From Crassostrea angulata (lineage: Eukaryota), in NCBI RefSeq assembly GCF_025612915.1, contig NC_069114.1:49706639-49770638 (forward strand): a stretch of DNA of 64,000 nucleotides, in the 5' to 3' direction. Made by a program: the position numbers and the translations under genes. The notes beneath the pieces are model-generated. The model saw only the letters and a list, made by a program, of their open reading frames with translations. It was not told the DNA's origin and did no database searches. Shown here one piece after another: positions 1 to 64,000 of the stretch. Positions within the stretch are counted from its first letter, which is position 1, and the number at the start of each line of letters is the position of its first letter.

Positions 1-1194
1 TTGGGGTGGGCGGTTTTGGGGTCTTGAGGAGTTCAGGTGTACTACTGAAGATGGCGTCCGCCGGGTCTGAGTACAGACGCCGACATTTAGGCGTCCCCGA
101 GGAACCGGCGTCTGGTTGAACTGTCCGCGTGTTTGTGCGTGTCGGGGGCACGAACTTCTGGCTGCCGCGCATTTTCTTTCTGTGACCTAGAAATAAAACA
201 CAGTAGCGTGTGAAGGAACCAAATTCGTCTGGTTTCATTTAACGTGAAGTAAAAGCAATGACAGTTGTGCGTTTATTGAATTAATGCAAAACAATAAACA
301 ACTTATTTTCTATTGCGATGTACCATTCATCCCCCATTTATTTAATGTAGGTCAAGGAATTGTCATATTTTTTTCTTAATCTGGTGACATTCAAACTTAC
401 AAAACGTTTTCTAATCGTGCTAAATCTATTTAAAGCTTCCAATTTGATATTTCTTTGATATGAAAATTCTTATATTAATAATATATTTGAATACATGTAC
501 TTCTTTCCATAAAATGTTATTTGCGTTTCCATTCAAATACAGGCGCACCATAATTAATTTGCATTTTGCGTAACTTTTATACATTTTATGAACGAAGTAT
601 TTTGTTTGCAAGTAACGATCATTCTGCGATGGTGGTGATACATTTGTAGTTTCAATTAAAGCACACTTATTGCAAAGGGCGATGGATTACATAAACATAC
701 AGACGATTTATCACATCCACTATACATCAAAAATAAATTAAAGCTGTTCTGATATTATATTATTCGCTATTCTGTAAAATATCAGCAAAAGTCTTATTGC
801 AAGAGACGTCGTCTTGGCTATTTTAAAAGAATCGTTGTTTATAGTCTTAAATTAGATTATTTTATATGTCATAAAAGCTGTGTACGTGCCGAAAATCATT
901 TAGCGGTAAATGCACGTGAATATCCTGGTTTGGGGATTTGACAGTGCATATGGCATCATCTCTCTGCCCCAGTCCACTACACCTGTGAGGCCTATATCCT
1001 TGTTACCTCCATCACAAAACTAAACAAGACATGTTTTAGAAACATGTATGCCCCAAACCATATATGTGGCGACACTGAGAAGGTCGGCTTTTTTCGCAAG
1101 GTTAGTTCTGAGTGCACGGCAAAGCAAGAGATTCTCAAGATATTAATTAATGGGGCAATATCTACCCATGTTCAGACTCCAGCAAGTAAGTTTG

Positions 1195-1460
1195 GCCCTT
1201 GACCCTACAACTTTTAACCTTAGAATCAAAAGAGTTCTCTACTTTCAAACGAGAGCCAAAAGGGAATCATATACTAGTATAAGGCTTGGTGTTTATTTGG
1301 GAAAAGGTTTTCAAGATAAACAGAAAACGTCTTTCTGTTACCCTTGACCTTACACCTTATAACCTTCAAATCAAAGGGGGTTCTCTGCTCCTCGTATATA
1401 AGGAGTGTCATCGAAAAAAAAGCTTGGTGTCATGGTTTTCGAGATAATCGGAAACTTTCT
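1195..1460. repeat. Tandem duplication, two diverged copies of about 130 bp (ttgacc.tacaac.tttaacct.a.aatcaaa.g.gttctct)
   Basis: Two adjacent related units. Confidence 0.5.
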
Positions 1461-2529
1461 CTCTATTTCGGGGCATTTTGATCCTAGACCTATTTATCTG
1501 GAAACTCTATGAATTACTAGTATTAATATTGGCTACGTCTGGGTTTCCTGTAGCCCGAGGTGCATTATGATTCTCAAAGTATAAGTGGACAACAGTTGAT
1601 GAACTGTAATGTTACCATTGGCCTTGCGACTAAAATAATAGCAGTGGTTAACATCTCCATAAATGGCACCATTGAATCTTATTTGGTGTTTATGTTCATC
1701 CTGCCAATTCGAGTCTATCGGAAAGCACTTGATCAACCCTACATAGACCTTGACCTTGTGACCTCAGGATAAATAGGGGTCATCCACTCTTTATGGGGTA
1801 CCAAGGTTTTAAGCTCAGGCGGTGATTTTTAAGATATTGATCGAACATATTGAATTTTGATTTTGTTCAATGACTTGCTCGTTGCCCGACAGGTGAAAAA
1901 AAAATACCCCCCCCCCCTTTTTTTTAAAGGGGGAAGGGGGGGGGGATAAAGCTACATTTTGTATTATTAAAGGATGTCTGAATATTAACGTATGACTGAA
2001 AAGGGAAGGGGGTGGCAAGTGAAACATCGAGCGAGTATAAGAAATTATATAAATATGCATGTGCATATATAACGAGCACGTGCATTGTCCCCAAAAGCCG
2101 CGCAGACGTCAACTTGTACTTATGCGTTCACAGAAGATAATTTGGAGAAAAATATCAATGTTTTAACCTGCATCATGTAAACCATATGCATACTTTGTAA
2201 ATGATTGGAAAATAAACTGTCGTAATGTAAATCTTATAGCGAGCGAAGCGAGCTCTGAGAACCAGTGTGCGCGGGAAAAAGAACGAGCTAAACCTACAGT
2301 TCATCAAACAAAATTTTTTGTCTACGTCCCATAATGCTCTCTAATGTTTTCACCCGTGGTGCTACGCCAAAAATGGCCGACTTTTAACTCGTAATTTACA
2401 GTGACTTAAAGTTTGAAGACACGTTTTGAGTACCGCATATGCTTTGGCGAGACTCAAAAGATTTGTTACATGCTTCCATACCTCCGTATTGAGTCGAGAA
2501 ACGTAAACAAAGACGAACAAAGTTATGGA

Positions 2530-3392
2530 TGACGTCACAGTGCACTCGCGCTATATTTCCCGCGATAAATTTAGAGGTGGATCAAACATCTGTAATGCGT
2601 GTACTAGCTATTTCAGTATAGACTGCGATACCCGCCTCATTGACGTATGATTTATTTTTAATTTTTTTAATATAGAGATTTTATGTATATATATTAGCAA
2701 GAGCCTTACTGTACTTTACTGTCATATCGATCCATTTTTAAGCTAATTGTGCCTGCATGAGTAGGGAGGAAATAAACAATAGGACATTTTGAAATAAATA
2801 AAAAGGAATAAAATGAAAAAAAAACAGTTAAAAAAATTATGTAGGACATATAGTCAGACTATTAAATTTAAAAGTGGGAAATTACACACCTACAAACAGG
2901 TACCGGTCTCCCGATCTCTCTCTCTCTCTCTCTCTCTGGGAAGGGGGTTGCGCTGTATGTATCATAACCATTAAAATTAGTACCTTTGGCATACTTATTG
3001 TAGAGCAATACTCTCTCAAAAATTCTTTGACGCTCGTTGATGCAAGGTATGTGTAATTCTTGCTGCGCTCGCCAGAACGGTAGCACCGTAAAACATATTA
3101 ATAAATGAATGAAATTTTAAAAAAAATTACCTCTAACACCGCTTGAACGGAGAATGAACTTTGACCTCATAAGCCACACCTCTTGACGTCACTGTTATAC
3201 GCTATACACAACGCGGTGGGCAGTTGATTCATAATACGACGATGTTTGTGTTCGTGTTGAAATATTGAAGTCTTGAACTATTTATACCAGTGATTTATAT
3301 ACAGGGAGAGGAATTACAACAACTCTTCTACCAGATAAGTTACATTTATCGACAAAGAGAATTCTGACATTAAAATTCCGCTGACGTCCATT
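2530..3392 (+). promoter_or_regulatory. Cluster of CRE/ATF motifs upstream of the SMOX-like ATG: TGACGTCA at 2530-2537 and 3185-3192, TGACGTC at 3383-3389. Candidate promoter.
   Basis: The motifs are read directly. The nearest is 36 bp upstream of the ATG at 3425. The regulatory role is inferred. Confidence 0.3.
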
Positions 3393-50957: not shown

Positions 50958-51133
50958 CTAAGTGTCTGAGGCGCTGTTGAGCTCAGACAGCCGCGCATGG
51001 TAAGCCACTAGACTGGCGTAGATCCCAGCGTTATAGCGGTAGGCACTCAGTAGATACGGTGACAGCGACACTTTCTTGACGGCAGACTCCCGGTCAGATT
51101 CGGTCACAAAATTTCCCTTCATCTGGATTTCAT
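50958..51133 (-). CDS. T-box gene terminal exon
   Basis: Acceptor ttttgtag. Encodes DEIQMKGNFVTESDRESAVKKVSLSPYLLSAYRYNAGIYASLVAYHARLSELNSASDT followed by TAG, in the same frame as ORF 50958-51179. Confidence 0.6.
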
Positions 51134-51829
51134 CTACAAAATAATAATTAAGATTGCAATAACTTCCAGGAAAAGGCAATGAAAGACACTAAGAGATTAA
51201 AGGGCGTTTCCGTCAGCTGAGCATGTTTACCTTCGTTAGGATGGACCACAATAGACGGACTCGTCCACGGAAAAATCAGGTGAGAATCGCTGATTCCTTT
51301 GCTTCTCTCGTCACTGGCAATGTCACCATCTGAAGAAAATTGAAGATTTGTTAACTGAGACAGAGAACAGACTGTAAATTAACAAACTTGTGAGTGAGGA
51401 AAGTATGACATCATGGCAGTGTTCAAGGTCAAAGTTCACGTCACGTTTAGACCCCGCAGTAGTTATGGTGTATCTATTCGGGGTTTTTTCGAAAGTGTTA
51501 GCATACTAAGGATAATTTGGAATGGGTGAAATGTAAGAAAACGTGTACTATAAATCAACAACAGTTAAATTAGTAATAAACACGTTTATGTTGTTTTTGG
51601 GGTGGTGGTGATTTTGTGCGTGTGTGTGTGGGGGGGGGGGGTTCTTGGTTGAATTTTAATGCTTACCTGTTCCAGTAGAAAAAATTTGGTCAGTCTTGCT
51701 GTCTTTTCCATCTAAGTGCCTTCGTCTCAGTCTTTTGTACCTACAAACACAACAAACCATCAAAGTACTGAAGTACTGAATGCCGGGCTCTTTTGGCGTG
51801 TCTTTATGCATATTGTGTAGTAAAGACTG

Positions 51830-51898
<69 letters not shown>

Positions 51899-53278
51899 CA
51901 ATTCTCTCGAAATTAAAAAAACAACAACAAAATGCCAACATTTTTTACAAAACTTGGCTCTTTGTGTAACTATTTAGTATAGCGGAAGCTTTTACTTTGA
52001 CGCTGTTTGGTTTTTTGTTTACTTTTGAAGTTGTGCTATTTATAGTAACATTGGCGATTTGCCTGTCTACAGCCAGAACTCTGCTTTCAGCAGAGCCAGG
52101 CTAAAAATAGAAAATCTCAATGTGGGCAAATACATGTACATACATTGTTTTACAAAAAGAGTGAATGACTTAAACTCTGTCATTGCGTACAGAGCGAGAT
52201 TCCGGCTAGGAATAGCTTCCCCTTCACATTTATATCTTTCTTATTTCTCATTTATGTCAATAACAACAGCATCATGTCATGAGTGGTTTTATAATATCAA
52301 TACAGAATTTCCCGAGAATATTAAGTAAGTAATAATTATCGGTGTTCAACTCAGTTTATAAGCCATATCGGCGTTTCCGTGTGTTGGCGGACTTGTCAAC
52401 AATGCGTCACCTGTACAAGTCTACGTCATGTCCGGTCACTGACCTTGGTTTGTCCCCGCGGAAGGCTTTAGCGAAGGGATTGTTGAGGATTTTCAGGTGG
52501 GTGATTTTGCTGTTCTGATAGGCTGTCACGGCGATAAAATTCGTCTCTTGCAGCAAAAACCGCGTGAAATTTTCTACTTCCGTCGTGACCTTATTACGTT
52601 TCTGTAACGTAATCCTAATGACGTATTTATGCATAGAATGTAGAAACACCTGAAAAATATCAAACAACATATGTAAATACAAAAAATGCAAACAATCAAT
52701 TGATAATAATCTTATTTAATATAATAGTTTGATTAAACTGTATAGATCTTTATAGATATGGTATGTCATATTAATGGGAGAACGCAACCTCTGACCAGCG
52801 CCACGGACAACTACCATGCCTTTAGTGACTTGCTTTCATGGTAATATATTTACATCACTAAGCATGATTCCCTCTATTTTTTTTATAGAAAATGATTGAA
52901 TCACCAAACAAAGCATTTTATAGTTTAAATAAATGCTGGAAGTTTCTTACGTTTTCCGGGTTAGACTCCAGGCTGTTTGTGAGTTTGACTCGGGCGAACG
53001 AGATTTTCCGAGCCATCCACAGGGAGCCAGGGCTGGGGCTTTCGGGGTGTACATAGGGGGCGTTCTCTTGCTGCGGTTCAGCGACCCCTACCGGCATCCA
53101 GGAGTCATTGAAAAATTTGAATCTTCGCTTATCCGCCGGAAGTATGTCTAACAAGACATCGTAAATACCTTCCGGGTCCAGACCGGAAACAGATATATAC
53201 AGGTACGGGAACATTCTTCTGGAATATTAAGGAGTAAAGCTGCGTGTAAATAATTAGTATCAATGAGAGAGAGAGAGA

Positions 53279-53330
<52 letters not shown>

Positions 53331-55142
53331 CGTATAGATATTAGTTCGTAATAGATGATACTTTGATACATTTAGTACGTGCATAACTATATCAGGCATG
53401 GGGTAATCGTAATCGAGTAATCGTAATCGATTGTAATGATTACTCTTTTTGGAGTAATCGACAGTAATCTGTAATCGAAGAGATTTTCGATTACTTGTAA
53501 TCGTAATTTAATCGATTACAGCCAAAAAGTTCAGTGTAATTATAATTACTTTTTCGATTACTTTCGATTACTCTTTACATAAACATATTGTGATGCACAT
53601 ATTGTATGAAAAATGCTCCTCAAGTGTTGTTTATAATACATTTGATAAAATATAAAATAAAATTGTTTACATTCATTTTTTATGATTTTCCATTTTCACT
53701 TAAAATATAACTATTGGTTCAAATGTCATTGAGTATATAATCAAATAATCAGTTCACTCTGTTTTTCACACTTCCTTGCAGAATTTTTTGATTATTTAAC
53801 CTAGTGTGGCTTAGAAATATCACTAAGCTACTGACCATTATTTAAAGAGGGATAGAAAGAGGGAGAGAAAGAGAGAGAGAGGTTATATTTAGTGTCTTTT
53901 TTGCCAGAGAAAAAACAAAAGGGTGTGTAAGTGTCAGTAAGTGTGTTTGTTCTTGCCAGGTAAGAAATGCACGAAGCACTTAATGAGGTGTGACCACCCT
54001 AATCATGTTAAAAAAACTCAGTTTAGATAACAATTGAAATAACCCCAACAAGGATCTATTAAATCAGAACAATTATAAGCTTCAAACCCAATTCATTCAA
54101 ATCATGAAGCAAGGTTCCCTCAAAGTTCTTTGGATATTGCCGATGATATTTTCAAAATTATAAAATTTTAATCTAATTCCTATTGTAGAGAAATTATCAA
54201 TAACAACAGAAGATTATGATGTTAATGGTGCAAGGTCAAGATTTCATACAAAGTCGTTAACTTCCAAGAAAAACCTTTGTTTTCATAATTTAAATGACAG
54301 TGCTTTCTTTATAATTGCTTATGATTTAAATAAACCGTAGAAATTATAAAATGTTATCTTATTAAAATTGAAATATAAAGTCTGAAATTTTCATATCATT
54401 CATATAATGAAAATACATCTTTAATAAAACCAAATTAACTTGAAGAGTTTATATGATATGTTCTGAAGAGGTACATGTACCATGCACATTTTAATGAATT
54501 ATTTTTAGAGTAATCGATTATTAATCGATTACATGTTATAAAGTAATCGATTACAATCGATTACTGGACAAAAATGAGTGTAATCGATTAATAATCGATT
54601 ACACAAAATTGCCCTATGTAATCGATTATTAATCGATTACATTTTTGAGTAATCGTGCCCATGCCTGAACTATATATTATTTCTTATATTTTGTATATGT
54701 TAATATGTATTCTTTGTATCTGATGAACCATTTGGCTAAAGGAATAAGTAAACTAAATTAAGCAGGGATGAAGTAGTTGAAAAAATATTCGTAATTGAGC
54801 GTTAATTACTTTTTCCAAAGTATTATAAAGTAATTTGTGATTGAGTCTCTCGATGATTACAAGTAATTTAATGCATTTCAACCATTCCAAAAAGTTCATG
54901 TATTTTCAATTAACCACTATCCGCTGGATTGAACAAGCAAATACTAACACTTGTATTTTTACGCGAGACATACACTGATTGAGATCGATTCGTCATTTTG
55001 ACACCATTATACAAATGTCACCGATTTTGCAGAGGTGTGGACGTCTAACAGTTGGTTATCACGTTGTATAAATGTAGGTTTAATTGTTTTATAAACATTG
55101 TTATGTCATGGAATTATTAAAATCGAAATGTATCATATACCC

Positions 55143-55176
<34 letters not shown>

Positions 55177-57079
55177 CTATCAAGGTTTAACTTGAAGACA
55201 CTGTAATTCAATAAAAACTGCATTGAAAAAAAATTATAAAAGTAAGATGTTGTTAAGAAAAGACAACCAGGCCTAACCTAACGAAGAAAACGAAAAATAA
55301 TTATTCTGCTGCTCCGAAACTCCGAGAAAAAGTGCGTCCAAAATCGGGAGTTCATCCAACCCTTATCTGCCCCTCTCCCCCTTACTCGTGGTGAACACGA
55401 TATATTAGTTTGCAATTAATTTTTTTAAATATTTCCATACGTATTCCCTTCGTTGCCTCCAAAATAAAAAAATAAATATAGATTTATTTGGTACCTTATA
55501 AGTTTTTAATAAACATAAGCTTTTAAAGCTGCTTGGTCCGATTTTTTTGTAATTACAGAATCAAATTTTTTTTCCATACAAATCATTTATCTTAGGAAGT
55601 TATGGACTTTCTCCTATTTACACCAGCAGAATCAGTCTCCTTTCAAAGTTAGAAATATTTAAAGTAAATAAAAATAATTTCTCTTTGGGCAAACGAAAAA
55701 ACAAACCAAAATGCATCACGGGAATGTTTAGAAAAGGAAACCACGTGGTTTCGTCCCCCGAATGATTGGGGTTATTCAACCCGCATGCTATGCATCGATT
55801 GTAAAGAAAGCAGACTTTGGAAATATTAGTGAACAAAACATACACATGTTTATTTGTAATTTGTCTGATCATTTCGACCTTTATTTAAAGCGATGTCAAA
55901 GTCGTAATACAACTATACCCTTCTCGTCGTCAGGGGTGAAACTTAACATGAGGCGAAATAACGCGGTACCATTTAATGTCGTTTGTTTTGTTAGCAAATT
56001 TTGTACGTATTTTTCTTCATTGAAATTTGACATAATTGACGGGTAAAACTACTGCAATGTCTATTATTATACATATACTAAGCATAGCCATCGTTTAAAA
56101 GCGTGCATAAAATTTGACATAAAATCGGACCAAGCAGCTTTAAACGGCAATAAAAGAATTCGCCGTCCATATGTTAGACACTGACCTTCCGCCTCGGTTG
56201 ATGATCATCTCGGTCTGGATTTCGTTGAATGCCATCCACAGGTGCGCGTCCAGCACGCTCACCCTCAACCCCTCCTGCTCATAAGACAAGTTCCCAGGAG
56301 TGTCTATCCCCGGGGGTAACTGCTGGTCGGGCGCCCACTCCCCCTGGGTCGGGGTGTGTCTCCCGCCGTTCTTTGTTGCCTCCCCCTGTAGCCTGAGTAG
56401 TTCGCGCTGTGGACTTTCGGCAGAGCGCGGGTCCCGATACAGCGGTGACTTGATGACGCATTGTTGTGTAGTCTGGGTTCTGTCCTCCTCCTTTGGGATC
56501 CCAGTGTGTGAAGGGTAATCAAGGCCCGATGCCGTTCTCATAGATGTGTTTACCAATTCGACAGAGTCTTTGTGATAGGTAGTCTCAAAATACCTGCACC
56601 TCGGATTACCAACATCCTCTAACGACGGACGCACACCTGTCAGAACCACCCCACCGTGGTCCGCACCTCGCACTGCGTCCTCCTCAGGGGGCTGTAGGCG
56701 CGGGCATTCAGGGTGGTATTCCTCCCTTTGTCGCGATGGTGGGAAATACTGAGCATTGTCAAACGGGATTTCTGGAATGACTTTTTTAGTCGTCAGGTCA
56801 AGTGGCTGAAAAAAGTATATTTTACTCAATAATGATACTATACAAGCTATACAAGCTGCTATAATTTCATGCTGCGTAATCAAAAAAAGTAATCCACACA
56901 AAACCCAGAGGTATATGCTTTGAAGAAAAAAAAATAAACAAAATATACAAAATCTTTGGCTGCGTTTATATTCACCCTGCTTTGTTTCATTTTCAACATG
57001 TGTAAAATAAGCACAATCCAAACTTTCTTAAATCATAAAATCTTACCTCTTCCATTGCAGCAAAACGATCTCTCGCCAT
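50958..57079 (-). CDS. T-box transcription factor (divergent; mixes Tbx6-like and Tbr/Eomes-like motifs); gene span, 6 coding exons, about 461 aa
   Basis: Exons on the minus strand are 57047-57079 (MARDRFAAMEE), 56186-56805, 53218-52951, 52649-52444, 51313-51231 and 51133-50958. The T-box domain reads LWMAFNEIQTEMIINRGGR|RMFPYLYISVSGLDPEGIYDVLLDILPADKRRFKFFNDSWMPVGVAEPQQENAPYVHPESPSPGSLWMARKISFARVKLTN...|VFLHSMHKYVIRITLQ...FLLQETNFIAVTAYQNSKITHLKILNNPFAKAFRGDKP. The intron inside GGRRMFP is at a classic T-box intron position. Phases are consistent (0,2,0,2,1) and the total is 1386 nt including TAG. Confidence 0.75.
51231..51313 (-). CDS. T-box gene exon 5 (tentative)
   Basis: This is the only acceptor (cattgccag) that keeps the frame open between exon 4 (phase 2) and the terminal exon. 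It encodes (S)DERSKGISDSHLIFPWTSPSIVVHPNE with donor G|gtaaac. The polypyrimidine tract is weak. Confidence 0.4.
51761..52104. repeat. Interspersed/duplicated segment, copy 1 (in T-box intron 4); includes the (CT)n tract at 51834-51894
   Basis: About 90 percent identical to 61151-61812 apart from a 350-bp indel. Shared blocks are caaagtactgaagtactgaa.gccgggctcttttgg.gtgtct.aatgcatattgtgtagtaaagactgaaaatct(CT)n and aattctctcgaaattaaaaaaa...ggctctttgtgt...tatagcggaagctttt.ctttgacgctgtttggttttttgtttacttttgaagttgtgctatttatag.aacattggcgatttgcctg...cagcca..actctg...agcagagcc.ggctaaaaat. Confidence 0.6.
51834..51894. repeat. (CT)30 microsatellite
   Basis: Direct. Confidence 0.9.
52444..52649 (-). 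CDS. T-box gene exon 4
   Basis: Acceptor ttttcag. Encodes VFLHSMHKYVIRITLQKRNKVTTEVENFTRFLLQETNFIAVTAYQNSKITHLKILNNPFAKAFRGDKP. Donor AG|gtcagt. Confidence 0.8.
52951..53218 (-). CDS. T-box gene exon 3
   Basis: Acceptor attccag. Encodes (R)RMFPYLYISVSGLDPEGIYDVLLDILPADKRRFKFFNDSWMPVGVAEPQQENAPYVHPESPSPGSLWMARKISFARVKLTNSLESNPEN. Donor AAC|gtaaga. Confidence 0.8.
53266..53327. repeat. (GA)n microsatellite 48 bp upstream (in the intron) of T-box exon 3
   Basis: Direct. Confidence 0.9.
53393..54667. mobile_element. Non-autonomous hAT-like DNA transposon (1275 bp) with 8-bp TSD AACTATAT, in T-box intron 2
   Basis: Left terminus is CAGGCATGGGGTAATCG. Right terminus is GAGTAATCGTGCCCATGCCTG, whose reverse complement begins CAGGCATGGG. 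Both are flanked by perfect direct repeats AACTATAT (53385-53392 and 54668-54675). Both subterminal regions are packed with the palindrome GTAATCGATTAC, with about 20 TAATCGATTA copies. The internal 0.9 kb has no long ORF. Confidence 0.6.
56186..56805 (-). CDS. T-box gene exon 2 (N-terminal region and start of T-box)
   Basis: Acceptor ttttttcag|CCACTTGAC. It forms the lower part of ORF 56140-57021, whose N-terminal 70 aa are intronic. It ends ...TEMIINRGG(R) at the donor AG|gtcagt. Confidence 0.75.
57047..57079 (-). CDS. T-box gene exon 1 (start codon; short)
   Basis: tctgcATGGCGAGAGATCGTTTTGCTGCAATGGAAGAG|gtaaga. It is in frame with exon 2, but support is modest because the exon is short. 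Confidence 0.45.
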
Positions 57080-58059: not shown

Positions 58060-58440
58060 ACATGTTATATGTACAAATAACGAAAGGTAACGATAACTAT
58101 AAATAAATGACAGATTACACGTACAAATAACGAAAGGTAACGATAACGATAAATAAATAACAGATTACACGTACAAATAACGAAAGGTAACGCTATCGAT
58201 AAATAAATGACAGGTTACACGTACAAATACGAAAGGTAACGATAACGATAAATAAATAACAGGTTACACGTACAAATAACGAAAGGTAACGATAACGATA
58301 AATAAATAACAGGTTTCACGTACAAATAACGAAAGGTAACGATAACGATAAATAAATAACATGTTACACGTACAAATAACGAAAGGTAACGCTAACGATA
58401 AATAAATAACAGAAGTAACGGTGAATAAATGACGATACAC
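58060..58440. repeat. Minisatellite, about 6 copies of a 60-bp unit (ttacacgtacaaataacgaaaggtaacgataacgataaataaataacagg)
   Basis: Tandem array. Confidence 0.85.
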
Positions 58441-61812: not shown

Positions 61813-64000
61813 GTAAAGATAAAGGGCTGGGGGGGGGGGGGGAGAGAGGTTCAGTATTCATCCCTCTGAGTTATTGTCCATTTAATTTGACCTTTTTGCA
61901 CCTTAAATGCAATTTCAGCCTCATTAGGATTTGTTGTCAGTATTTTTGATTAAGCAAACTTATTTGTTCAAATATTGTTTTTAATTATGCACAATGGTCA
62001 CACTGAATAGAGGGATCACGAAAATTATGTACGAAGCTGCATAAACTCTTTTGTGACCTTTTTGCACTTAATATAGACAATTTTTATTTAAATACTTACA
62101 ATTTGATTTCGAATAAAAACTTTTTGAATATCAAGAATTTAATAAGATTTATCTATTTTGCCTTAATATGTATTCAGTATTATTTTGACGTAATAAAACA
62201 TGGGGGGTCATTGATGTCAAATTTTAGATATAGGGCTTGAAAGGTAAAATTCTCGAAAAATTTGGATTTTATAGATATATTTGCATGATTTTATGCTAAA
62301 CGTGTATCACTCTGTAAAGATTTAATTTTGTACATGTCACACAGAACTTATATAGAATGTAACAAATGATATGAATAATGAATAAAGTATAATGAAAACA
62401 AAAATATATTAAAAATTCATAATTTTGCTTGTTTCTGTCATTTTCGTCCAAAAAACCTTCCGCACGAAAAAATAGAGTCCCCCCAAACTTGTTTGTTTCT
62501 TGAATTTAAATGGATTTTCTTTATAAATGTTGTGTTATTATGAAATATTAATCTTTCTGTGATAATAAGATAAAATAATAAAATAATATTCATTTTTTAT
62601 ATCATGATCATATGCGCAATAAAATCAAAGCGTGAGGAGTGAGATACCATAAATGATGAATTCTATTCAAAAATAGAAAGAAACCGATCAACATTAAGTA
62701 CGTTATTGTCATACTAGAAATAAAAAAAGATTAGAACCGGATATATTCTAAATCATCACCTGTCGTTTGGTATAATAAACAGTTTATTGCATGAACGTTA
62801 GGGAAATATGAGGATTTATTCCCCCAGGAAAATCCTATTTCCCTCGGGAATCTTCATTATTTTCCTCACAGTCATGCAATAAATGTATAATATTACCCGC
62901 TGACGCAGGTTATGTATTTTTCTGCAATATCACCACCTTCATAACTCGCATGAATCATCAAAGAAAGCATTTTGTTGTTTATATTTGCATCTTTCTTTTA
63001 ACAGATTAATAAATTTATCGTAAAAGTAAGTAAAATACACTTAATTACTGTTAATGTATATCGGTACGTAAGCTAAAAGAAACAGCTAAATCATCTCCTA
63101 TGGGAGTTTGAAACTGACATCATCATGATTATTTCGTGCAGCCCGTGATTTTTTTTTTTAGATCGCTGTAGGTTTCCTGCAAAGTTTCTTGAAAGTCTAC
63201 CGTATTTTGGGGGCCGTCTCAAAATATGAGGATGGGAAGGAAGGACACCATGACGAGAAAAATTCAATGTTTAACGTGGTCGACCTGGGTTTTATCAGCT
63301 TTGTTTTTTGCGCAGGATACAGTAGTCAAATCCACGTATTTTAAAACACTTGAAAAAATATTTTTGATCCCATATCAAATTTAATGGATCAACTAATAAA
63401 AATAATTGCAGAATAATTTTTTTTTAAATAATTTACAATTTACAATTTTTATTTGACAATTTTTATTATTGAGTGGATAGCAGACGTCAGTCACCTCACC
63501 TTACCTCTACGTGCCCGCTGGCACATAAGGCCCGGATAAACTGCCTCCACCTGTCCCTGTCTTTTATTTACTGTTTTTTTTTTTTTTTCAAATGGGCTGG
63601 ATCATGAATATCTCATTCTTATGTTTGTATCTCTGCAAGTATAAATGAAGGTGATAGGTTTGTTAATGTAGGTGAGTGAACATGTCTACCAACAATATGT
63701 CTTACAATCATATATGGGAAATGCTCATATAATTATTTAATACTGTAGTATTTGTATTGTAGTTTTTAAAAATCTTTGTACACTTCTCTAGCGAATTTAA
63801 AAAAAGGAGTTTTACTGAATTGTATATTTTAACGTGTAACCATGCATACAAACACTCTTAAAACATATTTATATATATATATATATAATTTTCCAATACA
63901 ACAAAAAATAAATCGGCACAGTTTTAAATAATTTAAAAATGATAAATATCCAGAATAAAATCACAAATTGATCCTATTAACCGCAAACGTTTTCGCCATT

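Follow-up and report, generated by a model that had tools for sequence, protein, structure and literature searches.

A 1275-bp segment (29% GC) at positions 53393-54667 of the 64-kb stretch of oyster DNA analysed here (the whole of which is called the window) very probably belongs to a bivalve hAT-Ac clade as a non-autonomous, MITE-like element that was inserted by cut-and-paste, and its ends are likely read by the transposase of the family hAT_A.kagoshimensis_16. A hAT-like non-autonomous transposon had been proposed at this position in a first-pass annotation made from the sequence alone, and the proposal was borne out by empty sites, by an 8-bp target-site duplication (TSD) and by homology of the ends to an autonomous hAT element. 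The result offers genome annotation a clean, fully bounded case of a hAT-Ac non-autonomous insertion that is polymorphic and lies within a developmental gene, in a major aquaculture species; it can be used as a presence/absence marker and adds to the evidence for current activity of DNA transposons in oysters. The autonomous family had been catalogued before, and novelty is limited to the non-autonomous subfamily member and its polymorphic insertion.

Anatomy of the element and its host gene

The host was identified as Magallana (Crassostrea) gigas/angulata. A spliced approximation of the T-box ORFs in the window matched, at 95%, a cluster of 491-aa proteins that includes XP_011443115 (Magallana gigas, 'T-box transcription factor TBX20 / TBX6L') and XP_052707122 (M. 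angulata). Mapping of the exons by tblastn (Table 1) placed the element in intron 1 of this gene, with its left end 172 bp from the exon 2 acceptor, in agreement with the T-box intron location given earlier.

The element's terminal inverted repeats (TIRs) match perfectly over 10 bp, as had been claimed (10/10 matches), and both are flanked by the identical 8-mer AACTATAT, the perfect TSD of the first-pass annotation. The whole window was scanned for perfect 10-bp inverted pairs lying 50-5000 bp apart with identical 8-mers outside them, and the element was the sole match, apart from a trivial match within its own array; in first-order Markov simulations, 5 such structures were obtained per 200 windows (approximately 0.025 per window). 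The core (53580-54510) has no long ORF, and no transposase domain was detected in a Pfam scan of the 101 stop-to-stop ORFs of at least 70 aa in the whole window. For three short ORFs lying within or close to the element, searches for exact matches returned no record, and no homologue was found for a 679-aa concatenate of the element's six-frame peptides. Other copies of the element numbered zero in the 64-kb window, where only microsatellite matches were obtained, and a second copy of the non-autonomous subfamily including its core was found neither in the window nor by the peptide and exact-ORF look-ups. The element encodes nothing and has kept only such cis sequences as mobilisation requires, namely the 10-bp TIRs and approximately 180 and 150 bp of subterminal repeats.

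Table 1. Positions of the element's parts and of the T-box exons in the window
Feature	Position	Strand	Remark
Left TSD copy, AACTATAT	53385..53392	.	single AACTATAT in empty alleles L012, L013 and L014
Left TIR, CAGGCATGGG	53393..53402	+	identical to start of hAT_A.kagoshimensis_16
Left subterminal region, 11 GTAATCG/CGATTAC units	53403..53579	+	with TIR, 187 bp homologous to autonomous left end
AT-rich internal core, ~931 bp, 28% GC, CpG observed/expected 0.22	53580..54510	.	
Right subterminal region, 10 GTAATCG/CGATTAC units, first at 54510	54511..54657	+	mostly palindromes
Right TIR, CCCATGCCTG	54658..54667	-	exact reverse complement of CAGGCATGGG
Right TSD copy, AACTATAT	54668..54675	.	adjoins right TIR
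T-box exons 1-3	56808-56179, 53220-52948, 52649-52443	-	tblastn of XP_011443115.3
T-box exons 4-6	51742-51668, 51333-51232, 50961-51134	-	tblastn of XP_011443115.3

The two subterminal regions are built from the 7-mer GTAATCG/CGATTAC, of which 21 of the 23 copies in the window lie within the element, 11 in 53403-53571 and 10 in 54510-54655. The exact 12-mer GTAATCGATTAC occurs a single time in the window, at 54543, and the 10-mer TAATCGATTA occurs eight times (0.1 expected), always within the element, once at the left end and seven times at the right. The true repeat unit is the 7-mer half-site and not the 12-bp palindrome, so that the earlier count of about ten repeats per end stands for the former (11 left, 10 right) and not for the latter, which is present in one copy. 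The ends are built differently and are not mirror images: at the left end four direct units abut the TIR (element positions 11, 17, 25 and 31) and the innermost units are inverted, while the right end consists mainly of palindromic pairs, including three 23-bp composites of the form GTAATCGATTA(T/A)TAATCGATTAC. Every CpG of the element ends falls within the GTAATCG units, and the CpG observed/expected ratio, which is 0.61 for the whole window, reaches 2.4-2.6 in the ends and is as low as 0.22 in the core. A full-text literature search for TAATCGATTA returned only unrelated primers and sequences, and three exact-pattern scans of viral sequences gave nothing or chance matches. Four bacterial or archaeal MAG contigs each contained one 21-bp palindrome and no array, and were taken as chance or unrelated matches.

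The autonomous partner family and its relatives

The autonomous family hAT_A.kagoshimensis_16 is present as a 3030-bp consensus in a curated bivalve TE library, where it is classed as hAT-Ac (PMC10294476, supplementary file 12); the suggestion that the element may be unclassified was therefore not upheld at family level. Element positions 1-187 align to consensus positions 1-187 with 91.4% identity, and element positions 1119-1275 (54511-54667) align to consensus positions 2874-3030 with 93.0% identity, with 0 gaps in either alignment; the first 52 bp and the 10-bp TIRs are identical. The GTAATCG units are found at the same positions in both, the difference being that the consensus carries a transposase gene, whereas the shorter window element has no gene and an unrelated core.

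The consensus codes for a two-exon, 609-aa protein with a Pfam zf-BED match at residues 21-49 (26.9 bits, cutoff 20.6) and a Dimer_Tnp_hAT match (PF05699) at residues 529-605 (75 bits). Against Hermes (PDB 6dww) the protein gave E=9e-22, and the Hermes motifs for the catalytic D, D, CxxH, W and E had their counterparts in TVDLW, ITDNAAN, HCYAH, TRWNS and VERLFS, respectively. An autonomous hAT relative of the kind that the first-pass annotation proposed to look for was thereby identified, its protein carrying the BED finger, the DDE residues and the hAT dimerisation domain. In a database of 5.8 billion proteins the closest entry (P0137, 93% identity) belonged to a cluster of 63 derived from read assemblies only; no NCBI-annotated M. 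gigas protein matched the transposase, and all close matches came from Logan read assemblies. Contigs carrying P0137 or its cluster mates were 98.2-100% identical to consensus positions 841-3030. These contigs were from the oyster SRR6063xxx series, the source of the T-box contigs as well (SRR6063006, SRR6063249 and SRR6063037), and from SRR9945510, DRR846126 and SRR29726839, with the Magallana origin tied to SRR6063xxx. One 566-aa product (P0258) corresponded exactly to transposase residues 46-609 (exon 2), and five further runs contained copies with 96-98% identity that had split ORFs or were truncated at the 5' end. The presence of both intact-looking and decayed copies in oyster runs indicates that the family is resident in Magallana and, as judged from these contigs, an intact-looking transposase is present in the same species as the window element.

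Descent of the element by simple internal deletion from a currently active autonomous element, instead of from a separately evolving subfamily, would agree with the collinearity of both its ends with the autonomous ends, and a GA-rich patch in the core (53846-53882) recalls the (GA)n tracts of the transposase intron. Apart from that patch, however, the core of approximately 931 bp has no detectable similarity to the 3030-bp consensus, and the ends are 7-9% diverged, in contrast to the autonomous copies of that species, whose identity to the consensus is 96-100%; such an origin is therefore improbable. The diverged ends and the foreign core together point to a separate non-autonomous subfamily and not to a fresh deletion derivative.

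The divergence between the ends of this subfamily member and the autonomous ends is unevenly distributed. Differences occur at only 3 of the 136 positions within the motif units, compared with 24 of the 208 positions outside them (Fisher p=0.0016); in the left region the mismatches lie in the spacers, and there are 0 indels, so that the spacing of the units is kept. By this comparison the motif GTAATCG is selectively conserved, and is a candidate functional cis element.

Related ends were found in two other elements. In hAT_A.kagoshimensis_12, a sister family from that library, the TIR is CAGGGATGGGGTAATCG and the arrays consist of GTAATC(G/A) and GTAATTG. A full-length element of 3.2 kb in Mytilus trossulus (CM071706.1; locus L030, 2400-5612) is close to this sister family and has TIRs CAGACATGGGGT/CAGGGATGGGGT and a perfect 8-bp TSD, CTTGTGAT. 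Both ends of the Mytilus element carry GTAATC(G) arrays together with GTAATCGATTAC palindromes, the same end architecture as in the window element, and the Mytilus element has a BED-hAT transposase, but this transposase is only 59% identical and many of the subterminal repeats are GTAATCA or GTAATTG instead of GTAATCG. The BED finger (CKYC...ISGN..TTSNF.TH.KRKHR) is conserved in Mytilus and also in the Saccostrea and Argopecten homologues. Taken together, the regular 7-mer array, the substitutions that spare the 7-mer and the same architecture at 59% transposase identity make GTAATCG a strong predicted binding site for the whole bivalve hAT clade. The Mytilus element lies within the span of an ERAP1-like aminopeptidase gene and its transposase is labelled by NCBI as 'zinc finger BED domain-containing protein 4-like'; here a transposon gene appears to have been annotated as a host gene. 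Separately, a metagenome pattern scan returned a sole contig (Ga0307518_10222805, positions 1-205; 48% GC, eukaryotic) with an array related to but distinct from that of the window element and the terminus ...AATCGTTGCCGAGCCTG. The element end on this contig (...GTAATCGATTACTAATCGATTACAATCGAT...CAATCGTTGCCGAGCCTG) shares AATCGATTAC repeats and the CAGGC tip, which suggests the same end architecture beyond bivalves.

Among the read contigs L019-L029, those from Magallana runs were 96-99.9% identical to the consensus named after Anadara kagoshimensis (99.5-99.9% over approximately 2.2 kb), and two further runs, outside the Magallana-assigned set, were 100% identical to it. The next-best transposases were those of Mytilus (59% identity), Saccostrea (50%) and the arcid Tegillarca (48%). 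Near-identity of the oyster copies to an ark-clam consensus, with the next transposases at no more than 59%, suggests recent horizontal transfer, and we consider it possible, though tentatively, that the partner family moved very recently between the distantly related bivalve orders Ostreida and Arcida. The near-identity of the Magallana and Anadara sequences could instead be an artefact of naming or contamination, and the name Anadara kagoshimensis has to be read with caution as the bivalve library was collapsed across species (CD-HIT 80-80). If such a transfer were true, an active, horizontally spreading hAT family with highly regular, CpG-containing GTAATCG sites and a conserved BED finger would offer a clean model of BED-DNA recognition, which might be methylation-sensitive as in Ac. 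The possible cross-order transfer is the sole part of wider appeal, and it is not established.

Empty alleles and the surrounding intron

The site of the element was empty in three other haplotypes: two Logan read-assembly contigs (L012 from SRR6063429 and L014 from SRR6063247), which were found via the exon 1 ORF and span exon 1 into the intron, and the M. gigas assembly GCA_963853765.1 (OY970752.1, locus L013). The empty alleles join window position 54668 directly to 53392 (...GTACGTGTAT AACTATAT ATTATTTCTT...) and hold one AACTATAT. Since the empty site breaks exactly at the TIR tips and retains a single AACTATAT, the insertion is polymorphic and the 8-bp TSD is a true one; the element is a presence/absence polymorphism with a genuine target-site duplication. 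Population resequencing had been proposed as a check, and the two resequencing contigs proved empty; the resulting polymorphism supports the view that the insertion is young. No second individual yielded a filled allele, since the neighbouring contigs end within the microsatellites on either side, those that carry exon 2 stopping in a (GA)n microsatellite (53266-53327), short of the junction.

The polymorphism could in principle be read in the other direction, with the filled state ancestral and the segment lost from the empty alleles, either through excision or through a precise deletion from one AACTATAT repeat to the other, and not with a recent insertion. All empty alleles are on one divergent intron haplotype (81-85% over 54668-55509), and there is no outgroup proof of polarity. 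Excision of hAT elements is hairpin-mediated, however, and normally leaves footprints behind, whereas the empty alleles hold one clean TSD copy. In addition, TIRs and TSD are perfect, the segment is bounded exactly as a transposon, and the CpG-containing motifs are all intact in ends that are rich in CpG relative to the window, so that an ancestral filled state is considered very unlikely. Recent insertion is therefore the preferred reading of the polymorphism.

Several other features of the locus were observed. The part of intron 1 at window positions 54668-55509 is unusually divergent between the window and L012, L013 and L014 (the 81-85% identity given above), compared with 96.6-98% for the exon 1 region and, in other contigs, 99-99.9% for exons 2-3. 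A second polymorphic MITE of approximately 615 bp is present in the same intron (55526-56140); it lies approximately 35 bp away from the donor site of exon 1, its TIRs are AGCTGCTTGGTCCGATTTT.../...AAAATCGGACCAAGCAGCT, and it is flanked by a TTAA duplication (55522-55525 and 56141-56144). This MITE is missing from L012, L013, L014 and L015, each of which has a single TTAA, and several read contigs end approximately 25 bp inside it, as expected for a multi-copy repeat. Approximately 95 bp to the right of the element, 54763-54880 appears to be one end of a related hAT element, old and fixed, in which CAGGGATGAAGTAG is followed by GTAATTG, GTTAATTAC and GTAATTT motifs (four GTAAT per 200 bp versus 0.6 expected, a modest excess). 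This stretch is similar to hAT_A.kagoshimensis_12 with its CAGGGATG TIR and its repeats of GTAATT type, and both haplotypes carry it (the tail of L015 includes it); its partner end was not found in the window. The GCA_963853765.1 haplotype has an insertion of approximately 665 bp (L013, 5243-5906) at window position 52899/52900, just past T-box exon 2 on its 3' side. The insertion is in part 70% similar to window 62949-63146 and probably represents a further TE polymorphism. Read contigs break in tandem repeats upstream of T-box exon 1 (window 58150-58413; period approximately 50 bp), where five or six staggered positions are matched by the first 83 bases of L012 and of L014.

Probable recognition of the ends, classification and known systems

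The element ends are most likely recognised in trans by the 609-aa BED-finger hAT transposase produced from full-length relatives. By analogy with Hermes, the BED fingers of an oligomeric transposase would read the GTAATCG units, with cooperative binding of the palindromic TAATCGATTA sites by fingers acting in pairs. The DDE core would thereby be placed on the CAG...CTG tips for excision, followed by integration through an 8-bp staggered cut; mobilisation of this approximately 8%-diverged subfamily by that transposase is proposed on the same analogy. Binding by the Ac transposase is methylation-sensitive, and with a CpG in every unit, methylation-sensitive binding here would be a reasonable extension of the Ac precedent.

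The same palindromes could be thought to serve the host, the T-box gene having recruited the element or its array of TAAT-CG-ATTA palindromes as a regulatory module (for example as sites for a paired-class homeodomain dimer or for BED proteins). TAATCGATTA has the TAAT-NN-ATTA form of the paired-type homeodomain P2 site, its ATCGAT core resembles the DREF element TATCGATA, and the location is intron 1 of a developmental transcription factor gene. The insertion is polymorphic, however, and missing from the reference haplotype examined, and is thus not a fixed, conserved regulatory element; we regard co-option as highly improbable, and transposase recognition as the preferred role of the sites.

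Among the features that define the hAT superfamily, the 8-bp TSD (PMC3942097, PMC3517528) is represented by AACTATAT, which flanks the element at either end and is found a single time in each of the three empty alleles. The perfect 10-bp CAGGCATGGG agrees with the short TIRs of hAT elements (about 5-27 bp, typically starting with CAG or TAG); kinship to a DDE transposase with a hAT C-terminal dimerisation domain is given through the homology of the ends, the element itself being non-coding; and mobility is seen in the insertion polymorphism exactly at the TIR boundaries. The length of the TSD and the shortness of the TIRs are not sufficient to distinguish hAT from other superfamilies with TSDs of approximately 8 bp (P element, Mutator-like, Merlin, Zisupton and Novosib), and the element has no transposase remnant, but coincidental CAG...CTG tips on a member of one of these can practically be dismissed given 344 bp of terminal sequence with gap-free homology to an element that codes for a bona fide hAT transposase. 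Placement in the Ac family rests on the library label, on 'ZBED4-like' nearest named homologues and on precomputed Pfam matches (ZBED1_RNase-like, PF27041/PF27039), and not on phylogeny. Arensburger et al. are said to have given nTnnnnAn as the Ac-type target consensus in 2011; AACTATAT fits it at one of the two fixed positions (A at position 7, and A instead of T at position 2), and the TSD of the Mytilus relative fits both, for two sites in all. The target consensus of the Buster family is nnnTAnnn (PMC3517528, PMC3499496), and the TA at positions 4-5 of AACTATAT was taken as coincidence because the partner transposase is of Ac type. The element also has the features of a MITE (non-coding, a core of 28% GC, TIRs and TSD, intronic location), with a length that is long for this class.

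Among known systems, maize Ac/Ds resembles the oyster pair in being an Ac-family hAT with non-autonomous derivatives mobilised in trans and with TIRs that begin with CAGG. The subterminal transposase-binding repeats of Ac also contain CpG (AAACGG). The motif and the host differ, and Ds elements are mostly deletion derivatives of Ac, whereas the window element has a foreign core. The Drosophila MITEs Mar and BuT2 are likewise short non-coding hAT derivatives with 8-bp TSDs, have 11-12-bp TIRs starting with CAG, and had their parental lineage assigned through their ends (PMC3517528, PMC3942097); the partner of the window element differs from theirs in belonging to the Ac family (ZBED1/4-like). 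Hermes of Musca domestica (2BW3, 4D1Q, 6DWW, 8EDG) belongs to the same superfamily, and the partner transposase shares with it the BED finger, the DDE residues, CxxH and W. In Hermes the BED domains bind the subterminal repeats, a quasi-palindromic pair of which is bound cooperatively, and the ends are asymmetric (PMC10368747), so that short TIRs, many subterminal repeats, asymmetric ends and a palindromic repeat pair are common to both systems. The Hermes repeat is AAGT with AT-rich flanks, whereas that of the window element is GTAATCG, far more regular and with a CpG in every unit.
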